Assembly: GCA_029561455.1 (NCBI GenBank)
Contig: JAKQIY010000006.1
Span: 142,860 to 206,859, forward strand
Source of the DNA: a bacterium
Lineage (GTDB): Bacteria; Zhuqueibacterota; Zhuqueibacteria; Residuimicrobiales; Krinioviventaceae
DNA length: 64,000 bases
Direction: 5' to 3'
The notes beneath the pieces are model-generated. The model did not search any database and was not told the DNA's origin. It saw nothing but the letters and a program-made list of their open reading frames with translations. Each line of letters begins with the position of its first letter. Position 1 is the first letter of the stretch. Below, one piece after another: positions 22,952 to 59,859 of the stretch. The position numbers were made by a program, and so were the translations under genes.

Positions 22952-22963
22952 CATGGTAACTCT

Positions 22964-23971: not shown

Positions 23972-24020
23972 AAGAATTATACTTTTCATAAACGCTACAT
24001 GAAATTGCAAAAGAGGGGTT

Positions 24021-25055: not shown

Positions 25056-25085
25056 CACAACTCCAAAAGCTGAAAAAGGGCTGTT

Positions 25086-26078: not shown

Positions 26079-26128
26079 TAGAGTTATTAATTTTTAAATA
26101 CAACTCCAAAAGCTGAAAAAGGACTGTT

Positions 26129-27127: not shown

Positions 27128-27174
27128 GTACATTTATTTTTATAAAAGCTACTTAAAATTGCAAAAGAGGGATT

Positions 27175-32416: not shown

Positions 32417-32450
32417 TATTTAACTCCTTGAAAAATTATAATATCAGTCC

Positions 32451-33395: not shown

Positions 33396-33561
33396 TTCAT
33401 CCTCGAAATATTTACCAGCTTTTTAATTCATAATTGTTTTTATTGACTCAGTCAATGTAATTAGCATATTATTATGATAATGTGATTTTTGGTTTATTTA
33501 AACACGGCAGCAACACAAGCTGCCGTGTTCACTATTTGTGCCTTATATCTGCTTGTCGATT

Positions 33562-34587: not shown

Positions 34588-34662
34588 TTGAACATTCTTC
34601 CAAAAGTATCAATTTAATTCAAATTTAACGAGCGGGAACCTCCATGTTCCCGCTTGCCATTA

Positions 34663-36522
34663 TTATGGCTGTTGAATGATTTGACTGAAATTGTTGACAC
34701 CGTTAACCATAATAGTGCCCGACTGGCCAATACCGGTTTGCTGAATTGCCGCAATATTAGTATCGCTGGAACCTAGCAGATCAATATCCGCAATGTGATT
34801 ATCGCCGGCCTGGCTTGTGGCAATGACGTTTCCTGAACCACTTACATTAATAAATGAATCATTGCTTTCACCATGCTGACCCTGAATCGAAGCGTTATCA
34901 TTACCAACAATTCCCAAAGTCGCTTCATTGGCGCCGCTGGTACTCCATACGGTGTATTGTTGCGCCTGGGTGGTTTTATTGCCATCGCCGGCAACATCTA
35001 TTACAGCTTTGCTGTAACGTCCATCCTGGAACTGAGAATAAACTCCATTGGTAACATCGGCCGCCTGAGGGCCAGTCCAGGAAAGTGCAAGCGGACTGGC
35101 AAGACCGGTAGCGGCAACATCAACAGATGCTGCCCCGGTATTATTATTACCGACATGTTTGACATTAATTTCCGAAGCCATGCCGCCTTTGCTTAACTGA
35201 TTGGCATTATTAAGATTACCTTCCTGGAAGACCAGCATTTTCTGAATACCATAGCTGCCAAAACTGGCTAATGTTTTTTGATCGGCAACGTTCTCATTGC
35301 CAATCTGCTTGATCTCAATGGCCATATAGCCTTTGTTTGCATTGGTGCGATGATAGGTAGAATTCAATTCCTGAGAGCCCTGGTTCAAATCGCCGGTTTG
35401 GAAAATTCCGGCTTCCCCGTTATTGCTGTTCATATCTATCAAAGCATCATTAGTATTGCCGGTTTGTACAACATAAGCTCCTTCCTTCCAGTCCGAAGCA
35501 TAACCCGGTTGATAATAGTTATTAACGGGAGCGCCGGATGCGCCTTGTGCAACGACTGCTTTATTACCGTTACCGCCATTCTGATCCACATCGGCATAGT
35601 TACGGCCATATTGCTGCACAGAAGCATTATGACTGTTACCTACCTGATCTACGGTGGCGATATTCTGGTTGCCAATCTGGTCAACATCAGCAAAATCACT
35701 GTTCCCGGTCATTGTAGTTGTTGCCAGGTTCATATCACCCAGTTGATAAGTATTGGCGATATTATCTGCTCCGGCGCTGATTTGTGATGCATTGTTCAGA
35801 TTACCATCCTGTAGTATATCCCCTTTCTGGTTATGGCCCAGGCCACTGCCGGAAAAGGTTTGACCAGCGGTATTATCATCGCCAAACTGATCAATATTTA
35901 TACCGCCGCTGTATCCATGATTGCTGCCGGTTATATTCTGGGTAGCGGCGTTACGGTCGCCAACAGTATAAATATACCCATGACTGTGGTTTGCCGACAT
36001 GGTTTGCGTGGCAGTATTATCATCGCCGATCTGGTCAACCTCAAAAGAATTGGTATAACCGGCAGAAATTGTTTGTGTGGACAAATTGCCGGCGCCTTGT
36101 TGATAAGCATTTACGGTCTGACCACTGTTGTATCCCGGAGCATAGGTGCTTTGTATTGCGGTATTGGTGGTTCCATCCTGTTCAATCGTCGCCCGGTTAG
36201 TGGAGTGACCACCGCCGCCGGTTTCAGTTTGATCGACATCAGCTACATTGCCTGTGCCGGTTTGTTTGACGTTGGCAATTTGCTGCCCGACCGGGGTATT
36301 TGATGCTGTTTCTACCTGGTCGACTGTAGCCGTATTAGCGCCATCCTGTTGCACGGTTATCTGGCCATTATCACCGGTTTGGTTGGTTGTGGTTACATTA
36401 GAACCGACCTGTGTTACATTAGTAGTATTATTATTGCCGTTCTGATTGTTGGTGTTGGTATTGGCGGCGTAGCTAAAGCCGACGAACGATAAACAAATTA
36501 TTAGAATAATAAATTTTTTCAT
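34663..36522 (-). CDS. Giant curlin-repeat protein, 619 aa.
   Basis: A signal peptide is followed by dozens of curlin-type units (VTQVGSNVTTTNQTGDNGQITVQQDGANTATVDQ; VDQIGDDNTATQ; IDQFGDDNTAGQ; VDQIGNQNIATVDQVGNSHNASVQQYGRNYADVDQNGGNGNKA; IFQTGDLNQGSQ; IKQIGNENVADQ). E. coli CsgA is 151 aa. Confidence 0.7.
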   Translation of the reverse strand: MKKFIILIICLSFVGFSYAANTNTNNQNGNNNTTNVTQVGSNVTTTNQTGDNGQITVQQDGANTATVDQVETASNTPVGQQIANVKQTGTGNVADVDQTETGGGGHSTNRATIEQDGTTNTAIQSTYAPGYNSGQTVNAYQQGAGNLSTQTISAGYTNSFEVDQIGDDNTATQTMSANHSHGYIYTVGDRNAATQNITGSNHGYSGGINIDQFGDDNTAGQTFSGSGLGHNQKGDILQDGNLNNASQISAGADNIANTYQLGDMNLATTTMTGNSDFADVDQIGNQNIATVDQVGNSHNASVQQYGRNYADVDQNGGNGNKAVVAQGASGAPVNNYYQPGYASDWKEGAYVVQTGNTNDALIDMNSNNGEAGIFQTGDLNQGSQELNSTYHRTNANKGYMAIEIKQIGNENVADQKTLASFGSYGIQKMLVFQEGNLNNANQLSKGGMASEINVKHVGNNNTGAASVDVAATGLASPLALSWTGPQAADVTNGVYSQFQDGRYSKAVIDVAGDGNKTTQAQQYTVWSTSGANEATLGIVGNDNASIQGQHGESNDSFINVSGSGNVIATSQAGDNHIADIDLLGSSDTNIAAIQQTGIGQSGTIMVNGVNNFSQIIQQP

Positions 36523-36623
36523 TTCTTTTCCCTCTTTCTTCCAATTTTAAATTACCATCCATGGCATCATTTATCTTTCTCGAATCCTGAAAAAGGTTGT
36601 ATAAAACATCAAACCGGGTTTAT

Positions 36624-37499
36624 TTAATTCGTTTGTTTAATAACCGCATTATTATTATTGCCGGTTTGTGTTGTCGACGCATTATGGGCATTGCCATACT
36701 GAAATGATTGTGCCGTATTCCAGTCGCCGGTTTGAGTTATTATTGAATAATTATTTTCCGATCCGGGCGTAGTTGCCGATTTATCCATATATTCCTCTGC
36801 AGTATTATTATTTCCGGATTGCACTACAAAACCCTGGTTACCACCGGTATGGCTCCAACCCCATTGTCCGCCAGCCATAATTTGATTGGAATAATTTTCA
36901 ATGCCAGTTTGGGTAGCGCTCAAGCTGGAATGGTCATTCACAGTTCCGCTTCCCAAAACCTGCCACGCTTCATTACCCATGCCGTTATCGCCGCCGCCGC
37001 CATTACCACTTTGAATTATGGTCGCGCCAAGCACGCTGCCATTGATGTGCTGGTTAGCGTAATGGTCGTCGCCGGTTTGGGTAATAGTACCGGTCGATTG
37101 ATTACGTAATTGGTTAATATAAGCTTCATTAAACGAACCGGTTTGGCCTACATTCGCCAGAGCATAATCATTCACATTTTGATTGATATCTGAAATATTC
37201 ATATCACCAAGTTGATTGACTACTGCCTGGGAAGGAGTGCTGCCGCCATAAGCCCCACGATATTGATCTACATCGGACCAGTTATTATTCCCGGTCTGCT
37301 GCACCGTGGCGGTAATGCCGGAAGAATAATACGTATAATCCGTTTTGGTCTGATCAACCGTACTGGTATTACTGGAACCAGTTTGTGTAGTAGTAGCTTG
37401 ATGGTTTTTGCCGGTTTGATTGATGCTCGATGAATTGCTGGCAGCAAGGACAAAACCGGCGAAAACAAGAACAAACAATAAAAGTATTAACTTTTTCAT
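36624..37499 (-). CDS. Curlin-repeat (CsgA/CsgB-like) secreted protein, 291 aa.
   Basis: A signal peptide is present. Repeats include INQTGKNHQATTTQTGSSNTSTVDQ, VQQTGNNNWSDVDQ, VNQLGDMNISDINQ, INQL...ITQTGDDHYANQ, VVQSGNNNTAEE, ITQTGDWNTAQSFQYGNAHNASTTQTGNNNNAVIKQTN. Confidence 0.65.
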   Translation of the reverse strand: MKKLILLLFVLVFAGFVLAASNSSSINQTGKNHQATTTQTGSSNTSTVDQTKTDYTYYSSGITATVQQTGNNNWSDVDQYRGAYGGSTPSQAVVNQLGDMNISDINQNVNDYALANVGQTGSFNEAYINQLRNQSTGTITQTGDDHYANQHINGSVLGATIIQSGNGGGGDNGMGNEAWQVLGSGTVNDHSSLSATQTGIENYSNQIMAGGQWGWSHTGGNQGFVVQSGNNNTAEEYMDKSATTPGSENNYSIITQTGDWNTAQSFQYGNAHNASTTQTGNNNNAVIKQTN

Positions 37500-37689
37500 A
37501 ATGACTACCTCTGTACTTTTACTCTTACCCGGTTTAAAGAATTATTGGTTTTGAATCACAATCGTAATATTAGTGATTCCGGTTTGAATAGCATTACCGG
37601 AATTATTGGTTGTAAATTCAAACCCGGTAAGATAAAATTGATACATAAAAATTTTCATTATTACACTATCCTGTAGAATTATTAAATAA

Positions 37690-38610
37690 TTATGGATAGG
37701 TTTGGTTAACTGTGGCGTTGTTGCCGGTGCCATTCTGCATAACAGTGGCTTTATTAACAAAGTCGCCATAATCGCCAAATAAACCGGTGCCGCCGTTTTG
37801 CACGACAGAAGCTGTATTGGAATCGCCAAGTTGATCAACATCGGACTTGTTAACATTCAGATTTTGGGTTACAGAGGCAGTGTTGTAATTACCGGCCTGG
37901 TAAATACCAAAATCATGATTACTGAACAGTCCTTTGCCGGTTTTATTATCATCGCCGGTTTGAGTTACTTCAGCATAGTTTCCTTGTGCGTTTTTGGCCC
38001 CGCCAGTACCATATTGTACTATGGTAGCAGTATTCCATCTTCCAGTTTGGGTTTCAATAGCCGTATTGCCAACTACCCAGCCGCCGCCGCCCTGTTCATC
38101 GACAACCGCAATATTTGCAGTTCCATCCTGAACTTGCCGTACATACCCGTTAAAACCGGTTTGATAAGAATTAGCTTCATTAGAGTTACCAATTTGATCC
38201 TGGTCAACTGTAGAGGAAACAGTGTGCTGCCAGGCAGTCACTTTATTGGTATTTCCTTCCTGGTATTGAGTGCCGGTGTTGCCACCGTTGCCGCCATCAG
38301 CTAATTGCCATAAAGTGGCCTGGTTATTGTTGCCATGTTGTTCCTGGGCGCCGGTCTCGCCAACAACTGTTGACCCAGCCGGCCAGCCGCCTTTTTGATC
38401 CAGATCGGCCACGTTGCCGGATCCATCCTGAATTTGGGTTGCAGTGCTGGTATTGGCTATTTGTTCAATAGTAGCCGCATTGCTTGAACCGGTCTGTGAA
38501 GCAGAGGCGGTGTTGCCCGAACCGGTTGTCGATATTGTTGCAGAATTGCTGGCCGCAAATACAAATCCGGCCATTGCTAAACAGAGTATAAAGGTAAACA
38601 GGGTTTTCAT
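37690..38610 (-). CDS. Curlin-repeat (CsgA/CsgB-like) secreted protein, 306 aa.
   Basis: A signal peptide is present. Repeats include ASQTGSSNAATIEQ, IQDGSGNVADLDQ, QEQHGNNNQATLWQ, VDQDQIGNSNEANSYQTGFNG, IVQYGTG...VTQTGDDNK, VDQLGDSNTASVVQNG. It is a close paralog of the next gene, with the same N- and C-termini (...ATVMQNGTGNNATVNQTYP). Confidence 0.7.
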   Translation of the reverse strand: MKTLFTFILCLAMAGFVFAASNSATISTTGSGNTASASQTGSSNAATIEQIANTSTATQIQDGSGNVADLDQKGGWPAGSTVVGETGAQEQHGNNNQATLWQLADGGNGGNTGTQYQEGNTNKVTAWQHTVSSTVDQDQIGNSNEANSYQTGFNGYVRQVQDGTANIAVVDEQGGGGWVVGNTAIETQTGRWNTATIVQYGTGGAKNAQGNYAEVTQTGDDNKTGKGLFSNHDFGIYQAGNYNTASVTQNLNVNKSDVDQLGDSNTASVVQNGGTGLFGDYGDFVNKATVMQNGTGNNATVNQTYP

Positions 38611-38642
38611 GATAAACCTCTCTTTTTGTTTAATTTATGTTT

Positions 38643-39545
38643 TTATGGATAGGTCTGGTTTACATTGGCAGAATTGCCATTGCCGTTTTGCATAACTGTG
38701 GCGCTGTTTACAAATGCGCTGAATGCGCCGGTATCGCCGGTTTGATTAATAACTGCATTGTTGGAATCGCCAATTTGATCGACATCGGAAAGGTTGGCAT
38801 TTAAATTCTGGTTAACAAAAGCAGTATTAAAATTTCCTTGCTGATAAATACCCCAGTCGTATTGATTATAATAGCCATCTCCGGTTTTATTGTTATCACC
38901 GGCTTGATTTATTTCCGCCGAGTTGCCTAAAGCAGTTTTTGCAGCGCCTGTTCCATACTGTACAATATTGGCTTTATTGTTTACACCGGTTTGTTTTTCA
39001 ATTGCGGAATTTCCATCGCCGCCGCCCTGTTCATCGACAAAGGCGCTGTTTCCAGTTCCAGTCTGATATTGTTGAACATAACCATTATAACCAACCTGGA
39101 AAGAATTAGCGACATTGGAATTACCAATCTGATCCTGATATGTTTTACTGCTGCCGGTATATTGCCAGGCAGTCGCTTTGTTGCTGTTACCCTCCTGGTA
39201 TTGCCGGGCGTCGTTGCCGCCTTCATTTTCGTTGGCTAATTGTAACAATGTGGCCTGGTTGCTATTGCCATGCTGTTCCTGGGCGCCGGTCTCCCCTACG
39301 ACTGTTGATCCGGCTGGCCAGCCGCCTTTTTGATCCAGATCGGCAACGTTGCCGGTCCCATCCTGTATCTGGTATGCCGAACTGGTGTTGGCAATTTGTT
39401 CAATACTGGCGCCATTGCCGGAGCCGGTTTGCGAGGCCGAAGCGCTGTTCGCGTTCCCGGTGGTCGATATAGTGGCGGTATTGCTGGCGGCATACATAAA
39501 TCCAGCCACTGCCAGACAGATGATAATAGTGAAGAATGTTTTCAT
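38643..39545 (-). CDS. Curlin-repeat (CsgA/CsgB-like) secreted protein, 300 aa. It is the first curlin subunit gene after csgG.
   Basis: It is a paralog of 37690-38610. The repeats include SASQTGSGNGASIEQ, QEQHGNSNQATLLQ, VDQIGDSNNAVINQTGD and ATVMQNGNGNSANVNQTYP. A signal peptide is present. Confidence 0.7.
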   Translation of the reverse strand: MKTFFTIIICLAVAGFMYAASNTATISTTGNANSASASQTGSGNGASIEQIANTSSAYQIQDGTGNVADLDQKGGWPAGSTVVGETGAQEQHGNSNQATLLQLANENEGGNDARQYQEGNSNKATAWQYTGSSKTYQDQIGNSNVANSFQVGYNGYVQQYQTGTGNSAFVDEQGGGDGNSAIEKQTGVNNKANIVQYGTGAAKTALGNSAEINQAGDNNKTGDGYYNQYDWGIYQQGNFNTAFVNQNLNANLSDVDQIGDSNNAVINQTGDTGAFSAFVNSATVMQNGNGNSANVNQTYP

Positions 39546-39666
39546 GGTACTACCCCTTTCTTAAAAATTTTACAGCGTTTTGGTTAAACTGTTGGTTATT
39601 ACTGTTAAAATGCTTACTCCCACAACCCTCCTTTCACGTGTTGATAATTACTAGTATTGTTGATTG

Positions 39667-41091
39667 CTAATAATATTTGATTCCAAACTTGAAACTCCAA
39701 AAATAATCATCCAGTTTGCCATGCAGTATTCCGTCCATGTAATCCGTAAAAGTATACTGGTTTTCAAATAAAAAATTGAAACTGACCTGGCGGGAAACAA
39801 AGCATTCCAGTCCGGCGCCGCCGGCAATAACAGGTTCCCAGCCATTAAAGCGTTTCTCCCTGCTTATTTGTTCTCCTGCTTTATCTCTGACTTTAAAATT
39901 CATAACACCGCCGCCGGCATACACAAATGGCCTTAAACTGCTTTTAGGCCACATATTATAAAATCCCTGTAACTGGGCTAATGCCAGGTCGGTATAAAAG
40001 TTATCACGATTTGCCAGCCGGCCGGCGCTGGCATTGAGCGCCAAAGCGAAGCGGGGATGTAAACCATAACTAATCGTAACATCGCCGCCGGGTCGCAGCC
40101 GGGGATTGGCATAATCACCCTGGTATAACTGGCTGCTGAAGTTGAGCGAAAATGCCAGGCCCTTGTCGTAACCAAACGCCGGAGCTTCGTTAAATGCGGT
40201 TTGTTCCTGACCAAACGCAGAATACCGCTCGCTGTTTTCTTTCTCTACCAGGTAATTTTGGATAATAGGTGATTTGATGTCTTCAGGATTTTTTAATTCC
40301 CAGTTTTTGGTAATAATTCCTTCGCAAATCAAACTCAAAACGCCTTTTTCAATCGCTTCTAAAACACACATCTGCGGGGGTTCATTGGTGCTGTAACCGC
40401 TTTCAATCTCAAGCAAGCGTTTTTCCCGGATAAACCGGTACAGACTGAAATCTACGGCTTTGGATAGGATAGTTTTAGTGGTTGTTACATTATTTAAAAT
40501 CCGTCCCGTTTTTGTGGCAACGGTGCGCAGGTAGATATTAACCTGGTCGCTGCGGAATTCTGTATGACCGCCCAAACCAAAATAGCGGGCGCCAAATCCG
40601 CCGGTTAATGTATTGGTTTCGTAGGAAATGATCCCGCCTTCAAGGGTAACGCCGGCGTAAAGCAGCGGCGGTAATGGGGGAAGTTTATTTCCCTGGTCAT
40701 CGGTATAATTATCGCGGGTGGCGGTGATTATTTTTCGTTCATTTAAAAGATTGGAAATACCTTCGCGTTCAACTACAATGAACCAGCCGGAATCCTCAAG
40801 CGATTTTAACAACATAGACGTGGCGCCCTGGGTGACGGCTGTCGACCAGGTCATGCCGGTAGCAGAGGCTTTGTATTGACCGGTTTGATCGCGGAATTTG
40901 TAAACTGCTATGACGATTTTTTCTTTGGGCTCGGGTAAAGAAATCAACTCTTTATGTACTGATGTAACATAAGTAATGGCTGCCGGTGTACTATGTACCG
41001 GGTTCATATTGCGAAATTGTGGCGAGCAACCAACAGTTAATATTATTAATGCTGTGAGCAGGAAAAAGCCTTTAGCTCTTTTATTATTCAT
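39667..41091 (-). CDS. csgG: Curli production assembly/transport lipoprotein CsgG with an extra C-terminal beta-barrel-like domain.
   Basis: A lipobox is present (LTVGCSP). Residues ~55-290 align with E. coli CsgG by eye: YKFRDQTGQYK.../IQDETGQFK; GATSMLLKSLEDSGWFIVVEREGISNLLNERKII / SATAMLVTALKDSRWFIPLERQGLQNLLNERKII; GGFGARYFGLGGHTEF / GGVGARYFGIGADTQY; ESGYSTNEPPQMCVLEAIEKGVLSLI / EVGYTSNEPVMLCLMSAIETGVIFLI. A further ~190 aa follow that E. coli lacks. They end ...FKFGIKYY, which looks like a small OMP beta-barrel. Confidence 0.85.
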   Translation of the reverse strand: MNNKRAKGFFLLTALIILTVGCSPQFRNMNPVHSTPAAITYVTSVHKELISLPEPKEKIVIAVYKFRDQTGQYKASATGMTWSTAVTQGATSMLLKSLEDSGWFIVVEREGISNLLNERKIITATRDNYTDDQGNKLPPLPPLLYAGVTLEGGIISYETNTLTGGFGARYFGLGGHTEFRSDQVNIYLRTVATKTGRILNNVTTTKTILSKAVDFSLYRFIREKRLLEIESGYSTNEPPQMCVLEAIEKGVLSLICEGIITKNWELKNPEDIKSPIIQNYLVEKENSERYSAFGQEQTAFNEAPAFGYDKGLAFSLNFSSQLYQGDYANPRLRPGGDVTISYGLHPRFALALNASAGRLANRDNFYTDLALAQLQGFYNMWPKSSLRPFVYAGGGVMNFKVRDKAGEQISREKRFNGWEPVIAGGAGLECFVSRQVSFNFLFENQYTFTDYMDGILHGKLDDYFWSFKFGIKYY

Positions 41092-41531
41092 TACAGACCC
41101 TCGCCATTGTAGTATGGTAATTCGATAGTTGTGGTGCCGCCGGTGGAAGGATCGCTGATCTCTATACGCAGCCCCTGTTCAGCGGGAATGACATCAATAG
41201 TATAATCGCCAATTTCATAATGCCCTTCTTCCAATTCCGATTCACCGAATATCTGCGTAACCAGTTTACTGGAAAGCCGGCTCAGAATTTGCCGGTTTAT
41301 ACTGTCGGTAAAATCTTCCAGGGGGTCGCTGGCCTGATAGGAATAAGAACTGGCTTTATCCCCGGTCTTGTCCTGCAGTTGTGCAGAACTTAACAGCCAC
41401 GAAGCATTATATGGATTTCCGCCAAAATTAGGGTTTACAAAGGTATGGACTAATTCTGTGGTGTAACCGGGTAAAACAGAAAACAGAATCAAGCCTAGAA
41501 CGCAAAAAACACCAAAACAGCTCTTGTTCAT
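41091..41531 (-). CDS. csgF: Curli assembly protein CsgF.
   Basis: A signal peptide is followed by [29 protein letters not shown], which matches E. coli CsgF [27 protein letters not shown]. Also [11 protein letters not shown] matches NFTQAIQSQIL, and [29 protein letters not shown] matches [29 protein letters not shown]. The ATGA start/stop overlap with csgG indicates translational coupling. Confidence 0.8.
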   Translation of the reverse strand: [146 protein letters not shown]

Positions 41532-41542
41532 AGTTATTCTCC

Positions 41543-42115
41543 CTAATAAATACCTGTTCCAGCCATATCGTCGCCGGCCATTTGTTTTTGATCCTGAGTG
41601 TAATTAACCAGATAATTGCCGGTAAAACCAGTTGCCTGCCTGGCAGCCTCTTCGATTTCGTCGGATCTTGGCGTTAATCGGTTTTGGTAAATAGAAATAT
41701 CGTTAATATTTATGAAAACCCAGCTGCCGGATTGCCCGGTCGGCATTTCTGAAATATAAATTGTATAATCATAAACCCCGGCAGGAGGCTCCCAGAGGGT
41801 ATAAAAATACTCATAAAATTCCTGACCGATTTTGGTTTTGGTATCGTTAATTATCAGTCCATCAATTTCCAATACATCGCCCGGACGAGTATTTTTTACA
41901 GTCTCAGTTTGTTCTGTTTCTTTAACAGTATCAGCCTGCTGCTGGACTTCCTGCCGGGCTTCCTGCAGTAATTTTTCCAGCAACGCTTTGGTGTTCTGTG
42001 ACTTTTTTTCTTTATCGCTGACTGTTGTACTATCGTTTGTTTGCGTATAAAGGGGTACAGTCATCATAAAAACACACAGCATCGTAACTAAAGTACTGGT
42101 TACACATTTTTTCAT
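41543..42115 (-). CDS. csgE: Curli production assembly/transport component CsgE-like protein.
   Basis: A signal peptide is present. LEIDGLIINDTKTKIGQEFYEYFYTLWE matches E. coli CsgE [28 protein letters not shown], and GSWVFININDISIYQNRL matches GSWITITVNQDVIFQTFL. It is the first gene of the E-F-G order and lies 12 bp upstream of csgF. Confidence 0.65.
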   Translation of the reverse strand: MKKCVTSTLVTMLCVFMMTVPLYTQTNDSTTVSDKEKKSQNTKALLEKLLQEARQEVQQQADTVKETEQTETVKNTRPGDVLEIDGLIINDTKTKIGQEFYEYFYTLWEPPAGVYDYTIYISEMPTGQSGSWVFININDISIYQNRLTPRSDEIEEAARQATGFTGNYLVNYTQDQKQMAGDDMAGTGIY

Positions 42116-42881: not shown

Positions 42882-43055
42882 CTAAAAGGACAACAGCGAA
42901 TCCGTCTCGTTCTCCACCCGTTTGCGCGTTACATACACTACAAAGCCATCCACCCCGGAGCCGTCATAATCCACTTCCAGAGATACCTTGCTGCGACTCT
43001 GGATGATCTTGTGCAGCAGCCGGATGATCTGCGGTATACTCAACTTGCCGCTCAT
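42882..43055 (-). CDS. Hypothetical small protein, 57 aa.
   Basis: It reads MSGKLSIPQIIRLLHKIIQSRSKVSLEVDYDGSGVDGFVVYVTRKRVENETDSLLSF. Its ATG overlaps the TGA of the upstream small gene (ATGA), which indicates translational coupling. It is not in the ORF track, and I did not recognise a family (it faintly resembles DUF2283). Confidence 0.35.
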   Translation of the reverse strand: MSGKLSIPQIIRLLHKIIQSRSKVSLEVDYDGSGVDGFVVYVTRKRVENETDSLLSF

Positions 43056-43291
43056 GCTGTTTTCACTCCTTCAAATCCTGCCTCGGCAAACCGTTTTTCG
43101 GTAATTTTCCCGCTCACCAAGCCAATGCTTTCCACCCGCCCGGACTTTTCCCGGCATTCCCGGCAATCTTGCGCTAAACAACGGGTGCAATAATGGCATT
43201 TTTCTGTATTGTCTTGCATTTTTTCTCCACTATTTTTTCCAAAACCCCAATTAGGCCTTAATAGTTGCAATACCTTGTCCCCTTTGTCCAT
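43052..43291 (-). CDS. Hypothetical small Cys-rich protein, zinc-ribbon-like, ~79 aa from ATG 43291.
   Basis: It reads MDKGDKVLQ...EKCHYCTRCLAQDCRECREKSG..., with a GGTGGA Shine-Dalgarno 5 nt upstream of the ATG. It contains a C-x2-C...C-x2-C cluster. The track lists a GTG-initiated version starting at 43300. Confidence 0.4.
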   Translation of the reverse strand: MDKGDKVLQLLRPNWGFGKNSGEKMQDNTEKCHYCTRCLAQDCRECREKSGRVESIGLVSGKITEKRFAEAGFEGVKTA

Positions 43292-43400
43292 GCCGTCCAC
43301 CGGTTACCGGGTGAAGCATTCTGTCCAGGACTTGTTACAGTTTAAATTTCATTTGGAACGAATGCTTCACCCCTACTCAACTAGACAAAAATCCCGGCCA

Positions 43401-44765
43401 TCAATTCTCCACCCCCAACAACCTTCTTGCCCCCCGCACCGCGCCGTTGCGGCCATCCCCATCGGCGATAACCTGCAACAATCCCGCCGCACGGTTGATA
43501 CCCTTGATCCGCTTTTTCGGCAAAAATCCCCCATTACGCACCAGGTGGACAAACTCTTCTTCATCGATCATCCCCATTTCAAACATGCGCTGGTAAGCGT
43601 TCAACTCCTTGTCCAGCGCCGTGGCGTTCAGCAGCCGCGCCCGCGCCTGTTCCGTCTTGTCGAGCAGATTAACCTCTTTCCATTCCAGCTTCCAGTTCGC
43701 CCCGGCCTCGCCGCGCAGGATCAAAAACGTATCCACCACGCGACGTATAATCGGGTCGATTTTCGTCCGGTACGAGTTGATATTCGCAACGATCATATCG
43801 TTCTGGTTATTGCTCATCCGCTCGGTCGTCGTCCACTTGTACAGACCGAACATAAACGGCGGCAGTCCCGTTTTGGTTATGATTTCCTCCTGCGCCGTAT
43901 GCACCGGCACTTGCAGGTTCAATATGGTATCCTGTCCGCCGAGTATTTTCACGTCGATACTGGCCCCCTCCGGCACGGCCGCGGCTACATCCCGCACACT
44001 CCCCCTGCGCCGAGCCCGGAACACCTCGGTAATATCATTCTGCAAATCCTCCGCCGCTTTTTTTACGCGCCCGAAATCGCCCCCGCGGCCCCCTTGCACC
44101 GTCACCAGGAAGGTCGGGTCCCCCACCCGCCATACCTGGTTTTCGATAGCCTGCTGGATGCGTAAAAAGATTTTCACCACAAACGGCAGCGAATAAAACA
44201 GACTGTATCCCTGCGGATGCCCGTCCCGCTGATCAAAACTGAGATAATAGATGAAATCCTGGTTGGCAAACGGCAGCACATTAAACACCCCCTCGCGCGC
44301 CTGACCCAGCAGCAAACAACCGTTGCGCTCCACAAAGCGGAAATCGTTGGCACGGGCGATCTTGAGCTGCTCCACATCATCCAGCATTTCGGACGGCACC
44401 AGTTCCCCAAAACCCATGCCTTTAGCCAGCGCCGAATCGCACAACTGGTCCACCCACGTATTCAGGCCCGAACTGAAATGGTTCACCCGTACGCCGGACT
44501 TGAACGCGTTCAGCAACTGCTGCACGCGCGGATCTTGCGCGGTCAACTCAAAATCGCCGATCAGCCGCACCAGCTTGATTACCGCCACATCCAAAAGCGG
44601 CACCGCCTCGCGCATCAGGTCGTACAAGTCCAGGTTGAACTTTAATGGCTGATAACCTTGCAGCGCCAGCGCAAAAGGATTCTCCCACGCATCGCGCGTC
44701 TGTGTCCGACTGCTTTTGGCGGACTCTTCCCGCCCCGCAAACCACCTGCTAAAAGGATTTCGCAT
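43401..44765 (-). CDS. Hypothetical soluble protein, 454 aa, family not recognised. It has a vague phage-portal-like feel.
   Basis: The ORF is intact with no signal or TM segment. It has a Gly-rich loop (VQGGRGGDFGRV). It is the first gene of a three-gene minus-strand operon. Confidence 0.6.
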   Translation of the reverse strand: MRNPFSRWFAGREESAKSSRTQTRDAWENPFALALQGYQPLKFNLDLYDLMREAVPLLDVAVIKLVRLIGDFELTAQDPRVQQLLNAFKSGVRVNHFSSGLNTWVDQLCDSALAKGMGFGELVPSEMLDDVEQLKIARANDFRFVERNGCLLLGQAREGVFNVLPFANQDFIYYLSFDQRDGHPQGYSLFYSLPFVVKIFLRIQQAIENQVWRVGDPTFLVTVQGGRGGDFGRVKKAAEDLQNDITEVFRARRRGSVRDVAAAVPEGASIDVKILGGQDTILNLQVPVHTAQEEIITKTGLPPFMFGLYKWTTTERMSNNQNDMIVANINSYRTKIDPIIRRVVDTFLILRGEAGANWKLEWKEVNLLDKTEQARARLLNATALDKELNAYQRMFEMGMIDEEEFVHLVRNGGFLPKKRIKGINRAAGLLQVIADGDGRNGAVRGARRLLGVEN

Positions 44766-45238: not shown

Positions 45239-45272
45239 TATACTGTATCCATAATCAACTACTCACCTTAAC

Positions 45273-45320
45273 AAATCGTCCATTCAATGGCTGAATTTCA
45301 ACCACTGAGTGGACGATTTG
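45273..45320 (+). other. Strong stem-loop immediately downstream of the MNT gene, a possible terminator or attenuator.
   Basis: A 15-bp stem with one G-U pair (CAAATCGTCCATTCA / TGAGTGGACGATTTG) encloses an 18-nt loop. It is not followed by a clear U-tract. Confidence 0.3.
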
Positions 45321-45490: not shown

Positions 45491-46120
45491 ATGCAAAACT
45501 CAAATAAATATATTGCCATCATCGGCGATCTGGTCAACTCCCGCGCCATGACCAACCGCAACGAGGTGCAAAATGCGTTGATCAATACCCTGAACACTAT
45601 CAACTCCAGCGATCTCAAACAACATATCGCCGCCAAATTCGTTATTACCCTCGGTGATGAATTCCAGGGACTGGTAACGCGTAATTTCCCCCTTCACCCT
45701 TTTCTCGAATTATATCATTCCGGCCTGCCCGCCAATGTCGCTACCCGCTTTGGTATCGGCCTGGGAGAATTGGCCACCGAATTAAAAAGCGAAACCATCG
45801 GTATGGACGGCCCCTGCTTTCACAACGCCCGCTCTGCAATTACCAGGGCTAAAAACGAAAATATCAACCTTATCTTTCAGGGTTTCGAAATGAATACCGC
45901 TCTCAATGCCTTGTATCATAACATTAACAATATTACCCAAAACTGGAAAGCCAGACAACTGCAAGTTATCTCGCTTTATAAAGATACGGAAGATCAAACG
46001 AATGTTGCAAAAAAAATGAAAATATCAAGACAAGCGGTTCATCGTATTTTAAAAGCAGCAAAATATGACCTGGTGCAAACCGGCTGGGATGGTGTACAAG
46101 AACTATTCTCCTTTATTTGA
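45491..46120 (+). CDS. SatD-like protein with a C-terminal helix-turn-helix, a putative regulator.
   Basis: The N-terminal YIAIIGDLVNSRAM resembles the signature I recall for SatD-family proteins. The C-terminal KMKISRQAVHRILKAAK is HTH-like, sigma-70 region-4 style. Confidence 0.45.
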   Translation: MQNSNKYIAIIGDLVNSRAMTNRNEVQNALINTLNTINSSDLKQHIAAKFVITLGDEFQGLVTRNFPLHPFLELYHSGLPANVATRFGIGLGELATELKSETIGMDGPCFHNARSAITRAKNENINLIFQGFEMNTALNALYHNINNITQNWKARQLQVISLYKDTEDQTNVAKKMKISRQAVHRILKAAKYDLVQTGWDGVQELFSFI

Positions 46121-46132
46121 GAATAATAACTT

Positions 46133-46242
46133 TTGTCAACCATTTTTGGTTGACAAAGCCATTGTCAACCATTTTTGGTTGACTACAGCCCAGTCAATTA
46201 AATTTGATTGACTGAAGCCTAGTCAATCAAATTTGATTGACT
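46133..46242. promoter_or_regulatory. Array of four palindromic sites, two of each of two types, immediately downstream of the SatD-like gene.
   Basis: TTGTCAACC-ATTTTT-GGTTGACAA is at 46133-46156 and repeats at 46162-46184 with one mismatch. CAGTCAAT-N8-ATTGACTG is at 46191-46214. AGTCAATCAAATTTGATTGACT, a perfect 22-bp palindrome, is at 46221-46242 and is followed by TTTTATTAT. Confidence 0.5.
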
Positions 46243-46453
46243 TTTATTATACTACACTCCTGCAAATTTCCTGTTAATAAAAAAATCCCCTTACAAACAC
46301 TGAAAAAATCACTGTATTGACCTCTAATCAAGGTCAACGAAATACGAAATTATTAAGATGGATATTTTCCCTGGGAAAAAAAATCTGTTGCATTCTAGCC
46401 AAATTCCTGTTATTTTTTCTTAAATAAACCGTTTATAATATTGCAGGTGAAAA

Positions 46454-53992: not shown

Positions 53993-56900
53993 ATGAATAA
54001 ACATTACACCCTGTTCTTTATGTGTGGATTGTTGCTGCTAGCCTGCTTTGCTTCTGCAGTTCCATTCTCACCCGGCGTTCCTGCGCAGGCTGCCTCCGCT
54101 TTACTCACCCGGCCAAATCCCCTCTTGTACACTGAAAACACTGCCAGTTCAGGTTTAACCAAAATTGCCGATATTGGCGGGCAAAGCAGGGATATTGCCT
54201 TAAATGGTTATTATGCTTATACCGGCGAGGGCAATAAACTGGTCATTCTCGATGTCTCCAATCCCGCTGCCCCGCAATTACTCAGCAGATTGAAACTGGG
54301 AGAAAGCGAAATCTATAATATTACTGCTTCGAATGATCTGGTTTTCGTCTGTACTGAATATTCAGGTTCTTTTATTATCGATGTCGCTAATCCCCATACG
54401 CCGGCTATTGCCGCCCATCTACCGTATACGGGCTGGTCATTCAAATCCTGTCTCGCCGGAAATTATGCTATTTTGGCCAGGGGAACCAACGGCTATATCA
54501 TTTTTTATATCGTCGACCCCTATCAACCACAGGTTGTATATACCGGTTCCGTTATTGCCAATGCAGTAGAGGTAGTTGGTAATTACTGCTTCCTGGCCGA
54601 TTATACCAAACTGACAGTTCTCGACATCAGCGCACCCGCGGCGCCTCTGTTGGCCGCCGAATACCCGTTTGCCTACAACGACGCCTCGATGTTGTATTTA
54701 CACAATGACTTGCTGTTTGTTGCCAACAATAACATTTTGCATATCTATAACGTCAGCAATCCGGCGACCATTGCAGAGCTCAGTTCCTATACGTTCACTG
54801 CGGGCTATCCCTACGATGTAAAGATGGTCGGCAATCTTGCTTATATTGCTGATTATTATCATATTATTCTTCTTGATCTCAGCAACCCGGCGAACCCGCT
54901 TTTGCTTGGTCAGGAAGACATTGGCTGCCTTCCCTACCAGTTAGCCGTTTCAGGAAATTTTGCTTATTTCGCCTGTTTTTATAAAAACGTCCAGGTCTAT
55001 AATTGCAGCGATCCTGCAGACCCATTTTGGTTTTCCGAATGGACCGGCCCGGTTCCCACCGCACGGGAATGCGTTCTTGACCAAAACAAATTATATGTCG
55101 CCAACCGTGAAGCCGGTATGAGTATTCTGGATATCTCTGTTCCCCAATCACCTTTTTTACTGGGCAAATATACTGACATTTTCTACAGTTGCAATGCCCT
55201 GGCGGTTAAAGATAATTATGTTCTGCTTGGCGACCTGGATACGCTGCGTATTATTAATTGCTCAAATCCCCAGGCGCTCGTGCAGGTTGCCACGTTAACC
55301 TTATTAAACGGCTATATAAGCGATATTAAAGTGCGAAATTCGTATGCCTGGGTAACGGATAATTATAACGGCCTGATCGGGGTAGATATCAGCAATCCCG
55401 CCAACCCGGTCATTACCGGTAACTATGATACTCCGGGCGATGCGTGTCATTTGGCATTATCCGGTAATTATGCCTGGGTTGCCGATGGGTCTTCCGGTTT
55501 ACGCTGTATGAATATTGCATCTCCTGCCAATCCGTTCGAAATCGCTGTGGTGTCCTCTTTAAAAAATGCTTATGATGTTGAAATTTCCGGTAATTATGCC
55601 TGGGTCGTAAAAAGGTGGAATCCCTATATTTATCAGGTAGATATCAGTACGCCCTTGCTGCCGATCATTACCGACAGTATTAATACACAAATTTTTGACC
55701 CGTTCTCCGTACTTATTCAGGATAATCTTGTATTAATTGCCGGGGTTCAGGGTATTCAGGGTTTTGATATCAGCAATCCGGCTCAACCCGTCGAGGCAGT
55801 TCCATTTTATCAGGTTTCCTCATGGGTATCCGGCATGGACGGCAGCGCTGAATATCTCTTTACCGCCAATGACGGCATGGGCGTCGAAATTTTTAAACTG
55901 CCAACGCCTTCTCCGTTTACCGGACTGCTGGTAACCACTACCGCCGATAGCGGCGCCGGCTCCCTTCGTCACGCCATTGAACAAGCGAACATTAAAGCAG
56001 GGCCGGATACGATACGCTTCAATATACCTGATAGCGACCCCAATTTTAATATTATTGACGGCGTGTGGCACATTCGCCCGGCGTCCCCGCTGCCCTCGAT
56101 TACCGACGCTCTAATCATTGAAGGCTATTCTCAAACCGATTTTATTGCTGCCGATACCAATCCCGCCGGACCGGAAATTCAAATCGACGGCAGCCAGGTT
56201 TTTTCCGGCTCCGGTCTGAACGTTAATGACTATAACTGTGAAATCAGCGTTCTGGCGATCATTAACTTTCCCCATGCGGGTATTATGGTCTCCATTGCCG
56301 ATGGTATAAAAATCTGGGGTTGCTACCTGGGAATCAATGCCACAGGCAGTGCCGCCGGGCCCAATCGCTATGGATTATATTTATGGGGTGGCTGTGAAAA
56401 TTCAATTATCGGCCCCCAGGGTGCCTCACAAACTGCCAATGTAATTTCCGGTAACAGCGAAACCGGCATATTCATTGATGAAGACTCGCGCAATAATAAT
56501 ATAACCGGGAACATTATCGGTTTGAATTACAACTCTAATCTAAAACTGGGGAATGGTTATGCCGGGATCGCCCTGCAGGAGCAATGCAACGATAACCGGA
56601 TCGCTGAAAATATTATTAGCGGTAACGGCAATGGCGTAATCATAACCGAATGTGCCGGTAACCTGCTTGAAAATAACATCATCGGTACAAATAACAGTCT
56701 TGCTCCCGAACTAGGTAATACGGAATATGGCGTTATCATTATGACCAAAGCATTTCAAAACAAGCTATCCGAAAATATTATCTGGTACAACGGTAAAAGC
56801 GGTGTGCTTGTCAATGGTCAAACCAGTTATGCCAATACTATTTCCCGCAACAGTATTGCTTTTAACACCGACGCCGGTATAAAGCTGGTCAATAACAGTA

Positions 56901-57454
56901 ATGATAATATCGATCCTCCCGCCCAGTTACACAAAACCTGGACCACCCTCAGCGGCGTCACCCGGCCATTAGCAACAGTAGAACTGTTCAGCGATCAGGA
57001 CAGTCAGGGTCAGAATTACCTGGGAGACACTATTGCCGATAATAGCGGCGCCTTTTCATTTACCTTGCCGGTTAATCCGTCTTTATCGTATTACACCCTG
57101 ACGGCTACGGACACCTCCGGCAACACCTCGGCGTTTTCCATGTCCCTGCCTACCGACATCGAGGAACAACAGCAGCAAAAACTGCCGGAACATTTCACCC
57201 TTGATCAAAACTATCCCAATCCCTTCAACCCGGTAACCACCATACGTTATGGCCTGCCCGTCGCCGAGGTTGTCACCCTTAAGGTATTCGATGTACTTGG
57301 CCGCGAAATGCTGACCCTCATCGACGCCGAAAAACAATCCGCCGGCTGGCACACCTGTACATTCGAAGCCTCCCGCCTCGCCAGCGGACTCTATTTCTAC
57401 CGGCTGCAAACCCCGCATCAAACGCTTTGGGGTAAAATGACGCTGGTGAAATAA
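53993..57454 (+). CDS. LVIVD-repeat / right-handed beta-helix protein with a T9SS C-terminal sorting domain, 1153 aa.
   Basis: A signal peptide is present. Repeated LVIVD-type units are present (KLVILDVSNPAAPQLL; LTVLDISAPAAPLL; HIILLDLSNPANPLLLG; MSILDISVPQSP; IGVDISNPANPVI...). The middle has a parallel beta-helix-like run (N.I.GN.......I...). The CTD reads NYPNPFNPVTTIRYGLP...LKVFDVLGREMLTLID...GLYFYRL...GKMTLVK. Confidence 0.8.
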   Translation: MNKHYTLFFMCGLLLLACFASAVPFSPGVPAQAASALLTRPNPLLYTENTASSGLTKIADIGGQSRDIALNGYYAYTGEGNKLVILDVSNPAAPQLLSRLKLGESEIYNITASNDLVFVCTEYSGSFIIDVANPHTPAIAAHLPYTGWSFKSCLAGNYAILARGTNGYIIFYIVDPYQPQVVYTGSVIANAVEVVGNYCFLADYTKLTVLDISAPAAPLLAAEYPFAYNDASMLYLHNDLLFVANNNILHIYNVSNPATIAELSSYTFTAGYPYDVKMVGNLAYIADYYHIILLDLSNPANPLLLGQEDIGCLPYQLAVSGNFAYFACFYKNVQVYNCSDPADPFWFSEWTGPVPTARECVLDQNKLYVANREAGMSILDISVPQSPFLLGKYTDIFYSCNALAVKDNYVLLGDLDTLRIINCSNPQALVQVATLTLLNGYISDIKVRNSYAWVTDNYNGLIGVDISNPANPVITGNYDTPGDACHLALSGNYAWVADGSSGLRCMNIASPANPFEIAVVSSLKNAYDVEISGNYAWVVKRWNPYIYQVDISTPLLPIITDSINTQIFDPFSVLIQDNLVLIAGVQGIQGFDISNPAQPVEAVPFYQVSSWVSGMDGSAEYLFTANDGMGVEIFKLPTPSPFTGLLVTTTADSGAGSLRHAIEQANIKAGPDTIRFNIPDSDPNFNIIDGVWHIRPASPLPSITDALIIEGYSQTDFIAADTNPAGPEIQIDGSQVFSGSGLNVNDYNCEISVLAIINFPHAGIMVSIADGIKIWGCYLGINATGSAAGPNRYGLYLWGGCENSIIGPQGASQTANVISGNSETGIFIDEDSRNNNITGNIIGLNYNSNLKLGNGYAGIALQEQCNDNRIAENIISGNGNGVIITECAGNLLENNIIGTNNSLAPELGNTEYGVIIMTKAFQNKLSENIIWYNGKSGVLVNGQTSYANTISRNSIAFNTDAGIKLVNNSNDNIDPPAQLHKTWTTLSGVTRPLATVELFSDQDSQGQNYLGDTIADNSGAFSFTLPVNPSLSYYTLTATDTSGNTSAFSMSLPTDIEEQQQQKLPEHFTLDQNYPNPFNPVTTIRYGLPVAEVVTLKVFDVLGREMLTLIDAEKQSAGWHTCTFEASRLASGLYFYRLQTPHQTLWGKMTLVK

Positions 57455-57485
57455 AATACCGGGTACAAATATTTCGTTTTTTCTC

Positions 57486-57513
57486 AGAGCAAGGGGCAAA
57501 AGCCCCTTGCTCT
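57486..57513 (+). terminator. Candidate intrinsic terminator hairpin downstream of the 1153-aa gene.
   Basis: A perfect 12-bp stem (AGAGCAAGGGGC / GCCCCTTGCTCT) closes a 4-nt AAAA loop, 32 nt after the TAA stop. It is flanked by T-rich sequence on both sides. Confidence 0.5.
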
Positions 57514-57539
57514 AAATTCTTTCAAATTCTATATTCATC

Positions 57540-57905
57540 TAGTCAACACTGTCCATGCCGTCCACCCCCTGAAAAACAAGCTCTTTCACCAACGTCATTT
57601 GCAGATCGCGCCGGGATTCATATCCCGGTGCGGGAAATAAACCAGGGTTTCTAACCCTGGATAATGATGTTAATACTCTGCATTACCAAACTGCATTTCT
57701 GGTTCCAGGCCTCCCGGCTTGGAACCCCTTTACCCCGGCTCTGCCGGTAAAAATATGAATACTTTTACAGGGCGTCCCCCCGAACGCCCCATCGCTCAAT
57801 CTCGCTCAGGGAGTCCGTCCCAGAGCGCATAATAATGTAGAACATCCGTCCTGTAGTAAAATTTATAGTTCTGTATCAAGGGCAAAAGTCCCTTGTTTAA
57901 TATTT
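57540..57905 (+). ncRNA. Candidate structured small RNA, unassigned; the strand is uncertain.
   Basis: The segment is gene-free and carries at least five perfect GC-rich hairpins within ~250 nt: CCGGGAT-TCAT-ATCCCGG (57611-28), CCAGGGTT-TCT-AACCCTGG (57642-60), GGTTCC-N14-GGAACC (57701-26), GGGCGT-N7-ACGCCC (57770-88), and CAAGGG-CAAAAGT-CCCTTG (57877-95). The last is followed by TTTAATATTT, which looks like a terminator. It did not match RNase P, tmRNA or other motifs I know. Confidence 0.2.
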
Positions 57906-58422
57906 ATTATCCAACCTCACCCCTTTTCCCATCATACCAATTGCAATTCCTATCTGCTCTTGAAAACTATTTTATTTGAGCTGAATTCATCTGACGGATA
58001 ATGTATGTTATTTTATTATAATTCTTTAGGCTTGTCTAAAATTTTTTCACCTAAAAAATGAATAATGGTTTTTTTACTTGCTACAAGCATCGAAAATTTA
58101 TATATTGCATCGTGAATGGAGTGGGCCTTTTTTAATCGGGGGGCCTCAAGCTGGACCTCAAATTCGGGATTTATTTAAATTTCCAAAAGCGCAAAAACAC
58201 TATCAAAAGTTATTTTTTACCAGGTGTTATTTTTTACACATTTAATTGTGTTTTTTACAACAGTATGAATTATCAGGGCTTTTAGACCCTGATTTACATT
58301 CATAGCAGGCGTTTAAGAACTATTTAAATTTTTACCTGAAACAAACCTGTAATTAATATTTACTAATTACTACTTATTCAATTATGGGTAATGTTATGGG
58401 TAATTAAGAGGAGGAGGAACAG

Positions 58423-59859
58423 ATGGGTAAATTTTGTAGTAAAATTTTATGGGGAGCGCTGATCACTCTCACTTTCTCAACACTGGTACGTGGTCAAACG
58501 CATTTCTTGTTCACCCCAACTGAAGACTATTATAGTATCATCGTCAGCCAGGCAACAATTGCCGGTCAACCCCTGCAAAACGGCGATGAAATCGGAGTCT
58601 TTTATGATAATGGCAGCGCCATGGTTTGCGCCGGAGCAGTTGTCTGGCCTAACAACGGCATTAGCGCCTGGGGTGATGATTCACAAACTACTGCTAAGGA
58701 TGGCTTTGCTACCGGTGATTTGCTGGTTTTCAAAATCTGGGAGTCAGGATCAGCATCTAATTATGACGATGTAAACGCTACATTCTCAACAGGCAACGGT
58801 ACCTGGGGCAATGGTATTTATGCTCAGGTGAGTCTTGATGCTGTACCATATATCCCTATCGGCCCGGATCTGGATGTACAGGATAATGTTCATTCTTTTA
58901 ATTTCGGGAATATCACTGTCGGATTAAATTCATCGCATACTTTTGTTATTCAGAATGAAGGCGATGCAAGTCTGGATATCTCTTCTATCGATATTGGTGG
59001 AACCAATGCAACTGATTTCAGCATTTCCAGCGGAGGCGGAACTTTCTCTGTTGCTGCCGGCAGCGATCATAATTTGGGTGTACAATTTACTCCAGCGGCA
59101 GCAGGAGCCAAAACTGCAACACTAACCATTTACAGCAACGACCCGGATGAAAACCCCTGGCAAATAATTCTTTCCGGTTCAGGTGAAACAGTCCTGCCGC
59201 ATTATAACTTTGCAGCCACTGAAGACTATTATAGCATTGTAATCAATAATGTGACAATAAATGACCTGCCTTTGCAAAATGGCGATGAAATTGGCGTCTT
59301 TTTTGATAATGGCAGCACCCTGGTTTGCGCAGGCGCAGTTATTTGGCCTGATTATGGTTTGAATGCCTGGGGTGACGACTCCCAAACCAACGACAAAGAT
59401 GGATTTATTGCAGGTGAATACCTGGTTTTTAAAATTTGGGATGCCAGCGCTTCAACCGAGTATACTAATATCAATGCCCTTTATCTGTACGGTGACGGCA
59501 CCTGGGGCAACGGTGTGTTTGCTCAGGTTAATTTGCATAATGTTCCTGTTGCTATTAACACAACAAACGATACAAGACCGATCCAGTTCGATCTGCTACA
59601 AAATTATCCTAATCCATTCAATCCGCAAACAACAATAGAGTATTCCCTGCCGGAAACTGCAGATGTACAGGTCGAGGTTTTTAATATAACTGGACAAAAA
59701 ATATGTACCCTGGTCAATGAAAAATTACAACCGGGGTATTATCGAGTGGTTTGGGATGGTACAAATGACCGTTCCGAAACGGTTAGCGCCGGTATTTATT
59801 ATTTAATCCTTAAAGCCGGAAATTATACCCAAACAAAAAAAATGGCCTTTATTAAATAA
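58423..59859 (+). CDS. T9SS cargo protein with two copies of an uncharacterised ~110-aa domain, 478 aa.
   Basis: There is a strong SD (AAGAGGAGGAGG) and a signal peptide. The internal duplication is FTPTEDYYSIIVSQATIAGQPLQNGDEIGVFYDNGSAMVCAGAVVWPNNGISAWGDDSQTTAKDGFATGDLLVFKIWESGSA, then FAATEDYYSIVINNVTINDLPLQNGDEIGVFFDNGSTLVCAGAVIWPDYGLNAWGDDSQTNDKDGFIAGEYLVFKIWDASAS. The CTD reads NYPNPFNPQTTIEYSLP...VEVFNITGQKICTLV...GIYYLIL...KKMAFIK. Confidence 0.75.
   Translation: MGKFCSKILWGALITLTFSTLVRGQTHFLFTPTEDYYSIIVSQATIAGQPLQNGDEIGVFYDNGSAMVCAGAVVWPNNGISAWGDDSQTTAKDGFATGDLLVFKIWESGSASNYDDVNATFSTGNGTWGNGIYAQVSLDAVPYIPIGPDLDVQDNVHSFNFGNITVGLNSSHTFVIQNEGDASLDISSIDIGGTNATDFSISSGGGTFSVAAGSDHNLGVQFTPAAAGAKTATLTIYSNDPDENPWQIILSGSGETVLPHYNFAATEDYYSIVINNVTINDLPLQNGDEIGVFFDNGSTLVCAGAVIWPDYGLNAWGDDSQTNDKDGFIAGEYLVFKIWDASASTEYTNINALYLYGDGTWGNGVFAQVNLHNVPVAINTTNDTRPIQFDLLQNYPNPFNPQTTIEYSLPETADVQVEVFNITGQKICTLVNEKLQPGYYRVVWDGTNDRSETVSAGIYYLILKAGNYTQTKKMAFIK

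Follow-up and report, generated by a model that had tools for sequence, protein, structure and literature searches.

The region 57455-58422 of the 64,000-nucleotide stretch of DNA analysed here (the window) is best read as a composite spacer and not as one gene. It is composed of a terminator, a 101-nt indel, a ~97-nt repeat, local hairpins together with a terminator-like hairpin (H9), and an AT-rich region with the putative promoter and the Shine-Dalgarno sequence of the next operon. As judged from sequence comparisons, the ~280 nt after the terminator hairpin H1 are assembled from separable hairpin units, one of 101 nt with two hairpins and one of ~97 nt with three. The best explanation, to which we give about an even chance, is that small stem-loop intergenic repeats resembling BOX, ERIC, REP/BIME or Correia-like elements have been stacked beside terminators.

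The region is flanked by two plus-strand genes for cargo of the type IX secretion system (T9SS), many of which are encoded in the genome of the window. The upstream gene (53993-57454) encodes an 1153-aa LVIVD/NosD/beta-helix cargo protein, and the downstream gene (58423-59859) encodes a 478-aa "choice-of-anchor D" cargo protein. The downstream gene is the first of an operon of 478-aa, 1147-aa, and 1272-aa proteins, all of them cargo. The organism is uncultured, and the best distant orthologue comes from candidate division KSB1. For self-comparison by self-BLAST, 84 kb of the contig were rebuilt from contig L062, the window, and contig L061. Four other assemblies of the locus were checked (L001-L003 and L063), each of which is 100% identical to the window. 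The region is also carried by the JGI contig 3300010355 Ga0116242_10000690. A search of 5.8 billion proteins yielded no orthologue of the 478-aa or the 1151-aa protein that exceeds about 45-50% partial identity. A search of genome contigs with the 478-aa protein returned only matches to the C-terminal sorting domain, and none of these loci contains the region. The only useful relative of the upstream gene is P0122, with 72% amino-acid identity, located on the 8-kb Logan contig L057 of SRR27370449, which lacks the 478-aa operon.

Elsewhere in the window, within 20462-28215, a gene resembling TonB-dependent receptors (CarboxypepD_reg and Plug domains) precedes a tandem array of five genes, each encoding 330-346 aa; weak CarboxypepD_reg matches below the Pfam cutoff are present in four of them, and Pfam matches nothing in the fifth. 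A curli-type secretion locus spans 31112-42115, with csgG, csgF, and csgE at 39667-42115 on the minus strand and two large curlin-repeat proteins encoded at 31112-32416 and 34663-36522.

The features of the region and of the adjoining gene end are the following.

57192-57517, plus strand: 3'-end module of 326 nt, comprising the last ~260 nt of the LVIVD/NosD cargo gene, a 31-nt spacer, and H1.
57486-57513, plus strand: H1, AGAGCAAGGGGC-AAAA-GCCCCTTGCTCT, 12 bp, 100% complementary, 8 GC pairs.
57514-57597: spacer that aligns with L057 at roughly neutral divergence and contains the 17-mer TGTCCATGCCGTCCACC (57550-57566).
57598-57698: 101-nt indel that carries H2 and H3, with CATTT direct repeats at 57593-57597 and 57694-57698.
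57607-57632: H2, 11 bp including one G.T.
57637-57665 (core 57642-57660): H3, 8 perfect bp.
57696-57792, plus strand: copy A of the ~97-nt repeat, with the three hairpins H4, H5, and H6.
57701-57726: H4, 11 bp including one G.T.
57735-57747: H5, 5 bp.
57770-57789: H6, 6 bp.
57803-57827: H7, local hairpin, 5+4 bp around a single internal mismatch.
57877-57895, with tail to 57905, plus strand: H9, CAAGGG-CAAAAGT-CCCTTG, 6 bp and a 7-nt loop, then TTTAATATTT.
57906-58422, plus strand: AT-rich upstream region, GC 0.27-0.34, preceding the 478-aa / 1147-aa / 1272-aa operon.

The hairpin cluster is real and non-random, since the region has no credible ORF, folds more strongly than shuffled sequences, and ranks as a structure outlier in the window. 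An earlier note, written from the sequence, had described the region as gene-free and unlike random intergenic DNA, and both descriptions hold. Within 57500-58422 there is no ORF of at least 60 aa, the largest having 55 aa (58078-58245), and an antisense ORF of 138 aa (57083-57499) touches only the edge of the region. The minimum free energy of 57455-57920 is -150.3 kcal/mol, compared with -103.4 ± 6.1 kcal/mol for dinucleotide shuffles, which corresponds to a z-score of -7.6 on the plus strand; the z-score of the minus strand is -5.3. In a GC-corrected scan of the 64-kb window in 200-nt segments, 57601-57800 is the second strongest structure outlier (z -3.4 on the plus strand and -3.8 on the minus strand). 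The two hairpins named in the earlier note are exactly where it had placed them, at 57486-57513 (H1) and 57877-57895 (H9). They are related, as it had claimed, agreeing at 18 of 20 positions plus one indel. The note had counted at least four further stems within about 250 nt between them; at least six are present (H2-H7), and the hairpins span ~360 nt. Its description of the surrounding DNA as otherwise AT-rich does not apply to the hairpin stretch, the GC content of which is 0.50-0.52, and the AT-rich part is 57900-58400 with a GC content of 0.27-0.34.

The strongest structure outlier of the window is an array of perfect palindromes (46051-46300, z about -5.6). The array itself, at 46130-46250, lies right after a satD-like gene (45491-46120, PF16264), contains TTGTCAACCA-TTTT-TGGTTGACAA twice and AGTCAATYAAATTTGATTGACT twice, and looks like a set of tandem operator sites. 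A 49-nt imperfect palindrome at 45272-45320 (AAATCGTCCA...TGGACGATTT), with a nucleotidyltransferase gene on one side and the satD-like gene on the other, is a strong structure outlier on the minus strand.

The intrinsic terminator of the upstream T9SS cargo gene is H1, which begins 31 nt past the TAA stop codon of this 1153-aa gene and is formed by a GC-rich stem-loop with a T-rich tail. The tail, TAAATTCTTTC, passes the T-rich criterion of the terminator scan, yet it is weak. The stem of H1 is kept at homologous gene ends. The orthologue in L057 and a paralogue in L061 have GAACAAGGGGC-TTTT-GCCCCTTGTTC at the place of H1, with one compensatory change of a G-C to an A-T pair and the loop flipped from AAAA to TTTT. 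H1 belongs to the 3' module of the cargo gene, because 57192-57517 is duplicated behind the 1272-aa cargo gene, ~10 kb downstream. The second copy is at extended coordinates 67020-67344 (L061 13557-13881) and has 89.3% identity to the first (E 2e-119, self-BLAST of the 84 kb). This 326-nt near-duplicate at two T9SS cargo genes suggests gene conversion or shuffling of a tail that includes the C-terminal sorting domain and the terminator. Hairpins of the form AAGGG...CCCTT occur only three times in the 84 kb: H1, its paralogue, and H9. H9 is a decayed look-alike of H1 with a T-tract, TTTAATATTT, and a putative terminator. H1 and H9 resemble Rho-independent terminators in having GC-rich stem-loops with T-rich tails, and H1 in addition shows the compensatory change; both differ from typical Rho-independent terminators in that their T-tracts are weak (TAAATTCTTTC in H1 and TTTAATATTT in H9). 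Downstream of H9, the AT-rich stretch 57906-58422 contains the Shine-Dalgarno sequence GAGGAGGAGGA at 58408-58418, followed by the ATG at 58423; the next operon probably has its promoter and ribosome-binding site in this stretch.

The 200-nt spacer behind the gene in L057 aligns to 57455-57597 and 57699-~57735 with 77% identity (nhmmer E 8e-14). As a neutral yardstick we used the four-fold sites of the L057 gene and the window gene, which agree at 60% over the full length and at 76% when only the final 150 codons are taken. The identity of the spacer is no better than neutral, and the conservation of 57514-57597 is therefore not taken as a sign of function. The earlier note had stated that its reading would fail if the hairpins were not conserved in related genomes; in the one relative, L057, H1 is kept, but H2-H4 fail this check, as H2 and H3 are absent and the 3' arm of H4 is unpaired, its complementarity having been lost. 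The alignment with L057 breaks off at ~57735, within H4-H5, where L057 runs into an unrelated convergent sulfatase gene.

The 17-mer TGTCCATGCCGTCCACC is exactly repeated at 43285-43301 and 57550-57566, and occurs in L057 as ...CCTTCCACC. Each occurrence is embedded in a set of three 9-nt repeats whose phase is set by GTCC or GTCA, with a chance probability of ~0.007. In viral contigs, the 17-mer has 15 matches, all in unrelated high-GC coding DNA and attributable to chance. A lone phage portal gene (43401-44765, minus strand, phrog_30703, E 2.5e-68) is located within 42882-44765, accompanied by two small ORFs, one of them Cys-rich. Since the portal gene stands alone, with no other phage genes nearby, the locus is probably a prophage remnant. 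We rejected the 17-mer as an att site shared with the portal-gene remnant at 43285, since a recombinase and extended similarity are both lacking.

The 101-nt unit with H2 and H3 is precisely absent from L057, which has an apparent empty site: its junction reads CACCAACGTCATTTCTGGTTCCAG, with one CATTT. The unit may be an insertion of a small palindromic element, or, equally, L057 may have undergone a slippage deletion between the CATTT repeats. No second copy of the unit is present in the 84 kb. The bacterial MITEs of the Correia/NEMIS and bcr1 types are matched by the size of 101 nt, the flanking A/T-rich direct repeat of 5 nt, and what looks like a clean empty site in L057 (PMC10969869). The unit differs from them in that it has one copy, its ends, GCAGATCG and CCAAACTGC, agree at just 4-6 of 8 positions, so that terminal inverted repeats would be at best 4-6 nt long, and a deletion between CATTT and CATTT explains the pattern as well.

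Self-comparison of the 84 kb identified only two non-coding repeats, the 3'-end module (57192-57517) and 57696-57792, which contains H4-H6. H7 has no other copy in this self-comparison and is unique in the data examined. The copies of the H4-H6 repeat are as follows.

Copy A, 57696-57792, plus strand: ~97 nt, three hairpins.
Copy B, L061 17306-17407, corresponding to extended coordinates 70769-70868: ~81-87% identity by aligner, nhmmer E 1e-31.
Copy C, L061 20567: truncated, 3 kb beyond copy B, with the first ~20 nt kept in register.
Copy D, L057 3920-3946: decayed.

The documented copies, two full, one truncated, and one decayed, either lie within 17 kb of each other or occupy the same locus. 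All four share the start boundary TTTCTGG. Several copies at unrelated intergenic sites (A, B, and the truncated C) lie within 84 kb, as in a dispersed stem-loop repeat family of the BOX/ERIC kind, and ~590 kb of loci from other organisms contain no copy. Copy B is ~13 kb from copy A. The genes on either side of its 774-bp intergenic region are both on the minus strand, and copy B is therefore antisense to them. Copies A and B differ at 4 of 50 stem columns and at 19 of 52 unpaired columns (Fisher p 0.0007), so that stems are preferentially conserved in this part of the region. Of the 25 pairs of H4-H6, copy B forms all and copy A forms 23, and the two copies thus have a stable secondary structure in common. 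Double compensatory changes are absent, and pairs changed only from G-C to G.T. In copy C, H4 may likewise have been retained, its two arms forming a long-range helix that encloses a 41-nt insert. The H4-H6 unit has no terminal inverted repeats, and no transposase, RAYT, or IS200-like gene is present among the genes scanned in the 84 kb. We rejected a genomic island bounded by copies A and B, because no recombinase is encoded in the interval and the sequence to the right in the relative does not match.

Copy B directly adjoins a nested palindromic element (L061 17418-17640, GTCATTCCGAGGAGCGAAGCGATGAGGAATC ... GATTTCTCGCTTCGCTCGAAATGAC), which is enclosed by the inverted pair GGGGCTGTATCAAAAGCCCC / GGGGCTTTTGATTCAGCCCC. 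Its motif GTCATTCYGAG...GAATC recurs in locus L008 from Melioribacteraceae and in locus L022 from Ignavibacteria. The adjacency of copy B and the nested element indicates that intergenic regions of this genome collect palindromic units.

The earlier note had proposed a single structured RNA bounded by two hairpins. The parts of the region are separable, as H1 travels with the 3' end of the upstream gene and H4-H6 recurs elsewhere in antisense orientation, which speaks against that proposal. Scanning with Rfam, as the note had suggested, assigned the region to no family. Rfam 15 at the gathering score gave no match in the window, the extended contig, or the 50 kb of related loci L061, L062, and L057, and copy B had no Rfam match. 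At E<=10, there were only sub-threshold, terminator-shaped matches driven by H1; the best of them, to rli22, has 26 bits against a threshold of 80, stems from H1 alone, and is a chance match. No tRNA or tmRNA was detected in the window. The blastn search of phage and plasmid collections gave no phage match and one 30-nt chance match in a plasmid, and scans of viral contigs with the hairpin pattern and with the module pattern gave no matches. Two pattern scans of metagenomes were empty as well; the second pattern failed to return the JGI contig that carries the region, and the scans are given no weight.

The ERIC/IRU elements of enterobacteria have the same traits as BOX-type repeats, namely a length of ~100 nt, several stem-loops, and an intergenic location. 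Families of small stem-loop repeats are common in bacteria and typically intergenic (PMC2267715, PMC3049150). BOX/RUP/SPRITE, ERIC, and REP/BIME elements are lineage-restricted and modular, and co-transcribed elements are believed to exert their effects via RNA structure (PMC3049150, PMC2267715, PMC3116915, PMC10969869). The units described here resemble BOX, RUP, and SPRITE of Streptococcus pneumoniae in being ~100 nt long, composed of several stem-loops, modular, and mosaic, as well as in their restriction to intergenic regions, occurrence in either orientation, narrow lineage, and presence or absence between close relatives (PMC3049150). They have no sequence similarity to BOX and are present as two full copies in the 84 kb examined, compared with more than 100 copies per genome for BOX (PMC3049150), and a subunit order of the boxA/B/C type is not evident in the H4-H6 unit. 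As in REP/BIME elements and in REPINs mobilised by RAYT transposases, GC-rich palindromes follow gene ends near terminators, form mosaics with other short motifs, and keep their stems (PMC3116915, PMC3337134). Unlike REP, which is a single 20-40-nt palindrome with one consensus, often in inverted doublets, the H4-H6 unit combines three hairpins that differ from one another and share one orientation. It forms no doublet and lacks a conserved GTAG-type head, and no RAYT gene is present among the genes scanned in the 84 kb; it was therefore not assigned to REP or REPIN.

It is also possible, if rather unlikely, that a small family of plus-strand sRNAs, each transcribed on its own, has H4-H6 as its conserved 5' domain. 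Copy A would then extend from ~57699 to a terminator formed by H9 near 57905, copies B and C would be its paralogues, and the C-rich loops (UCCC/UCCU in H4 and CCCCCC in H6) would base-pair with Shine-Dalgarno sequences, among them GAGGAGGAGGA of the downstream cargo operon. RsaE/RoxS of Firmicutes are sRNAs of this kind, with C-rich loops that mask Shine-Dalgarno sequences. The H4-H6 unit resembles them in exposing UCCC and CCUCC in hairpin loops and in having several paralogous copies, and Shine-Dalgarno sequences are strong in the window organism. The sharp 5' boundary common to all four copies is consistent with a transcribed unit, and so are loops that drift while stems hold and a plus strand that folds better than the minus strand (z -7.6 versus -5.3). 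Four of the five wobble positions in H2, H4, H5, and H6 (one in H2, two in H4, and one in H5) pair only on the plus strand, but this 4:1 bias is not significant. Stem conservation together with these wobbles would also fit a selected plus-strand RNA. A plus-strand terminator-like hairpin is located 110-330 nt downstream of each of the copies A, B, and C; however, shuffled sequences lead one to expect 0.4-1.1 such sites per region, close to the 1-2 present, and the stretch between the module and the putative terminator is unrelated among the copies. No sigma-70-like site was found upstream of copies A, B, and C, although promoters of this lineage may follow another consensus. Furthermore, copy C retains just ~20 nt in register, and the L057 copy has lost the H4 pairing though neutral divergence is merely ~25-40%. 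The H4-H6 unit is thus unlike RsaE/RoxS in having no recognizable promoter, no common terminator, no cross-genus conservation, and no Rfam match. No sRNAs are known from the phylum of the window organism. The more specific proposal, in which the ~97-nt unit would be the core of an undescribed plus-strand sRNA family beside secreted-cargo operons, with UCCC/CCUCC loops pairing with the Shine-Dalgarno sequences of these operons, appears distinctly improbable.

We consider it very unlikely that 57540-57860 is what remains of a decayed gene or small ORF, such as the minus-strand MTLVKELVFQGVDGMDSVD (57595-57536), with H9 as a terminator left from a lost cargo gene. The GC content of 0.50-0.52 is as in coding DNA, the small ORF is also present in L057, and H9 resembles a cargo-gene terminator. 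However, the ORF pair has 2 synonymous and 5 non-synonymous differences, a shifted stop, and an identity at the neutral level, for which we rejected it as a gene. No Pfam domain was found at E<=1 in any open frame segment of the region, and nothing upstream of H9 looks like the 3' end of a cargo gene. We give almost no credence to the "riboswitch-like leader" of the earlier note, in which the hairpins would control the 478-aa operon in cis from its 5' leader, as a riboswitch, attenuator, or thermosensor: the hairpins are upstream of the operon, on the same strand, and strongly structured, but the terminator-like H9 and ~520 nt of AT-rich DNA separate them from the start codon, so that a leader does not fit, no Rfam family is matched, the left part is also present in L057, which lacks the operon, and H4-H6 recurs in unrelated contexts, antisense to its neighbors.

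We hypothesize that the hairpin units are small, non-autonomous, stem-loop-forming intergenic repeats, which may spread or be copied at the DNA level. When co-transcribed, the units would form RNA hairpins that block 3' exonucleases and help to stop read-through, and the upstream gene would thereby be insulated from the next operon. Stems may stay paired through selection or arm-to-arm correction, while loops and spacers drift. The end of homology with L057 inside copy A, at ~57735, is expected if rearrangements happen at repeats.

The region illustrates that dense perfect GC hairpins and a very low folding z-score can mimic a structured RNA gene. For annotation, it adds evidence that 3' ends of cargo genes, terminator included, are copied between T9SS genes. 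The stacked stem-loop repeats would represent a new repeat family in an uncultured lineage, with stems preferentially conserved. If the repeat unit were instead a transcribed sRNA family near secretion-cargo operons, it would provide a modest new regulatory lead.
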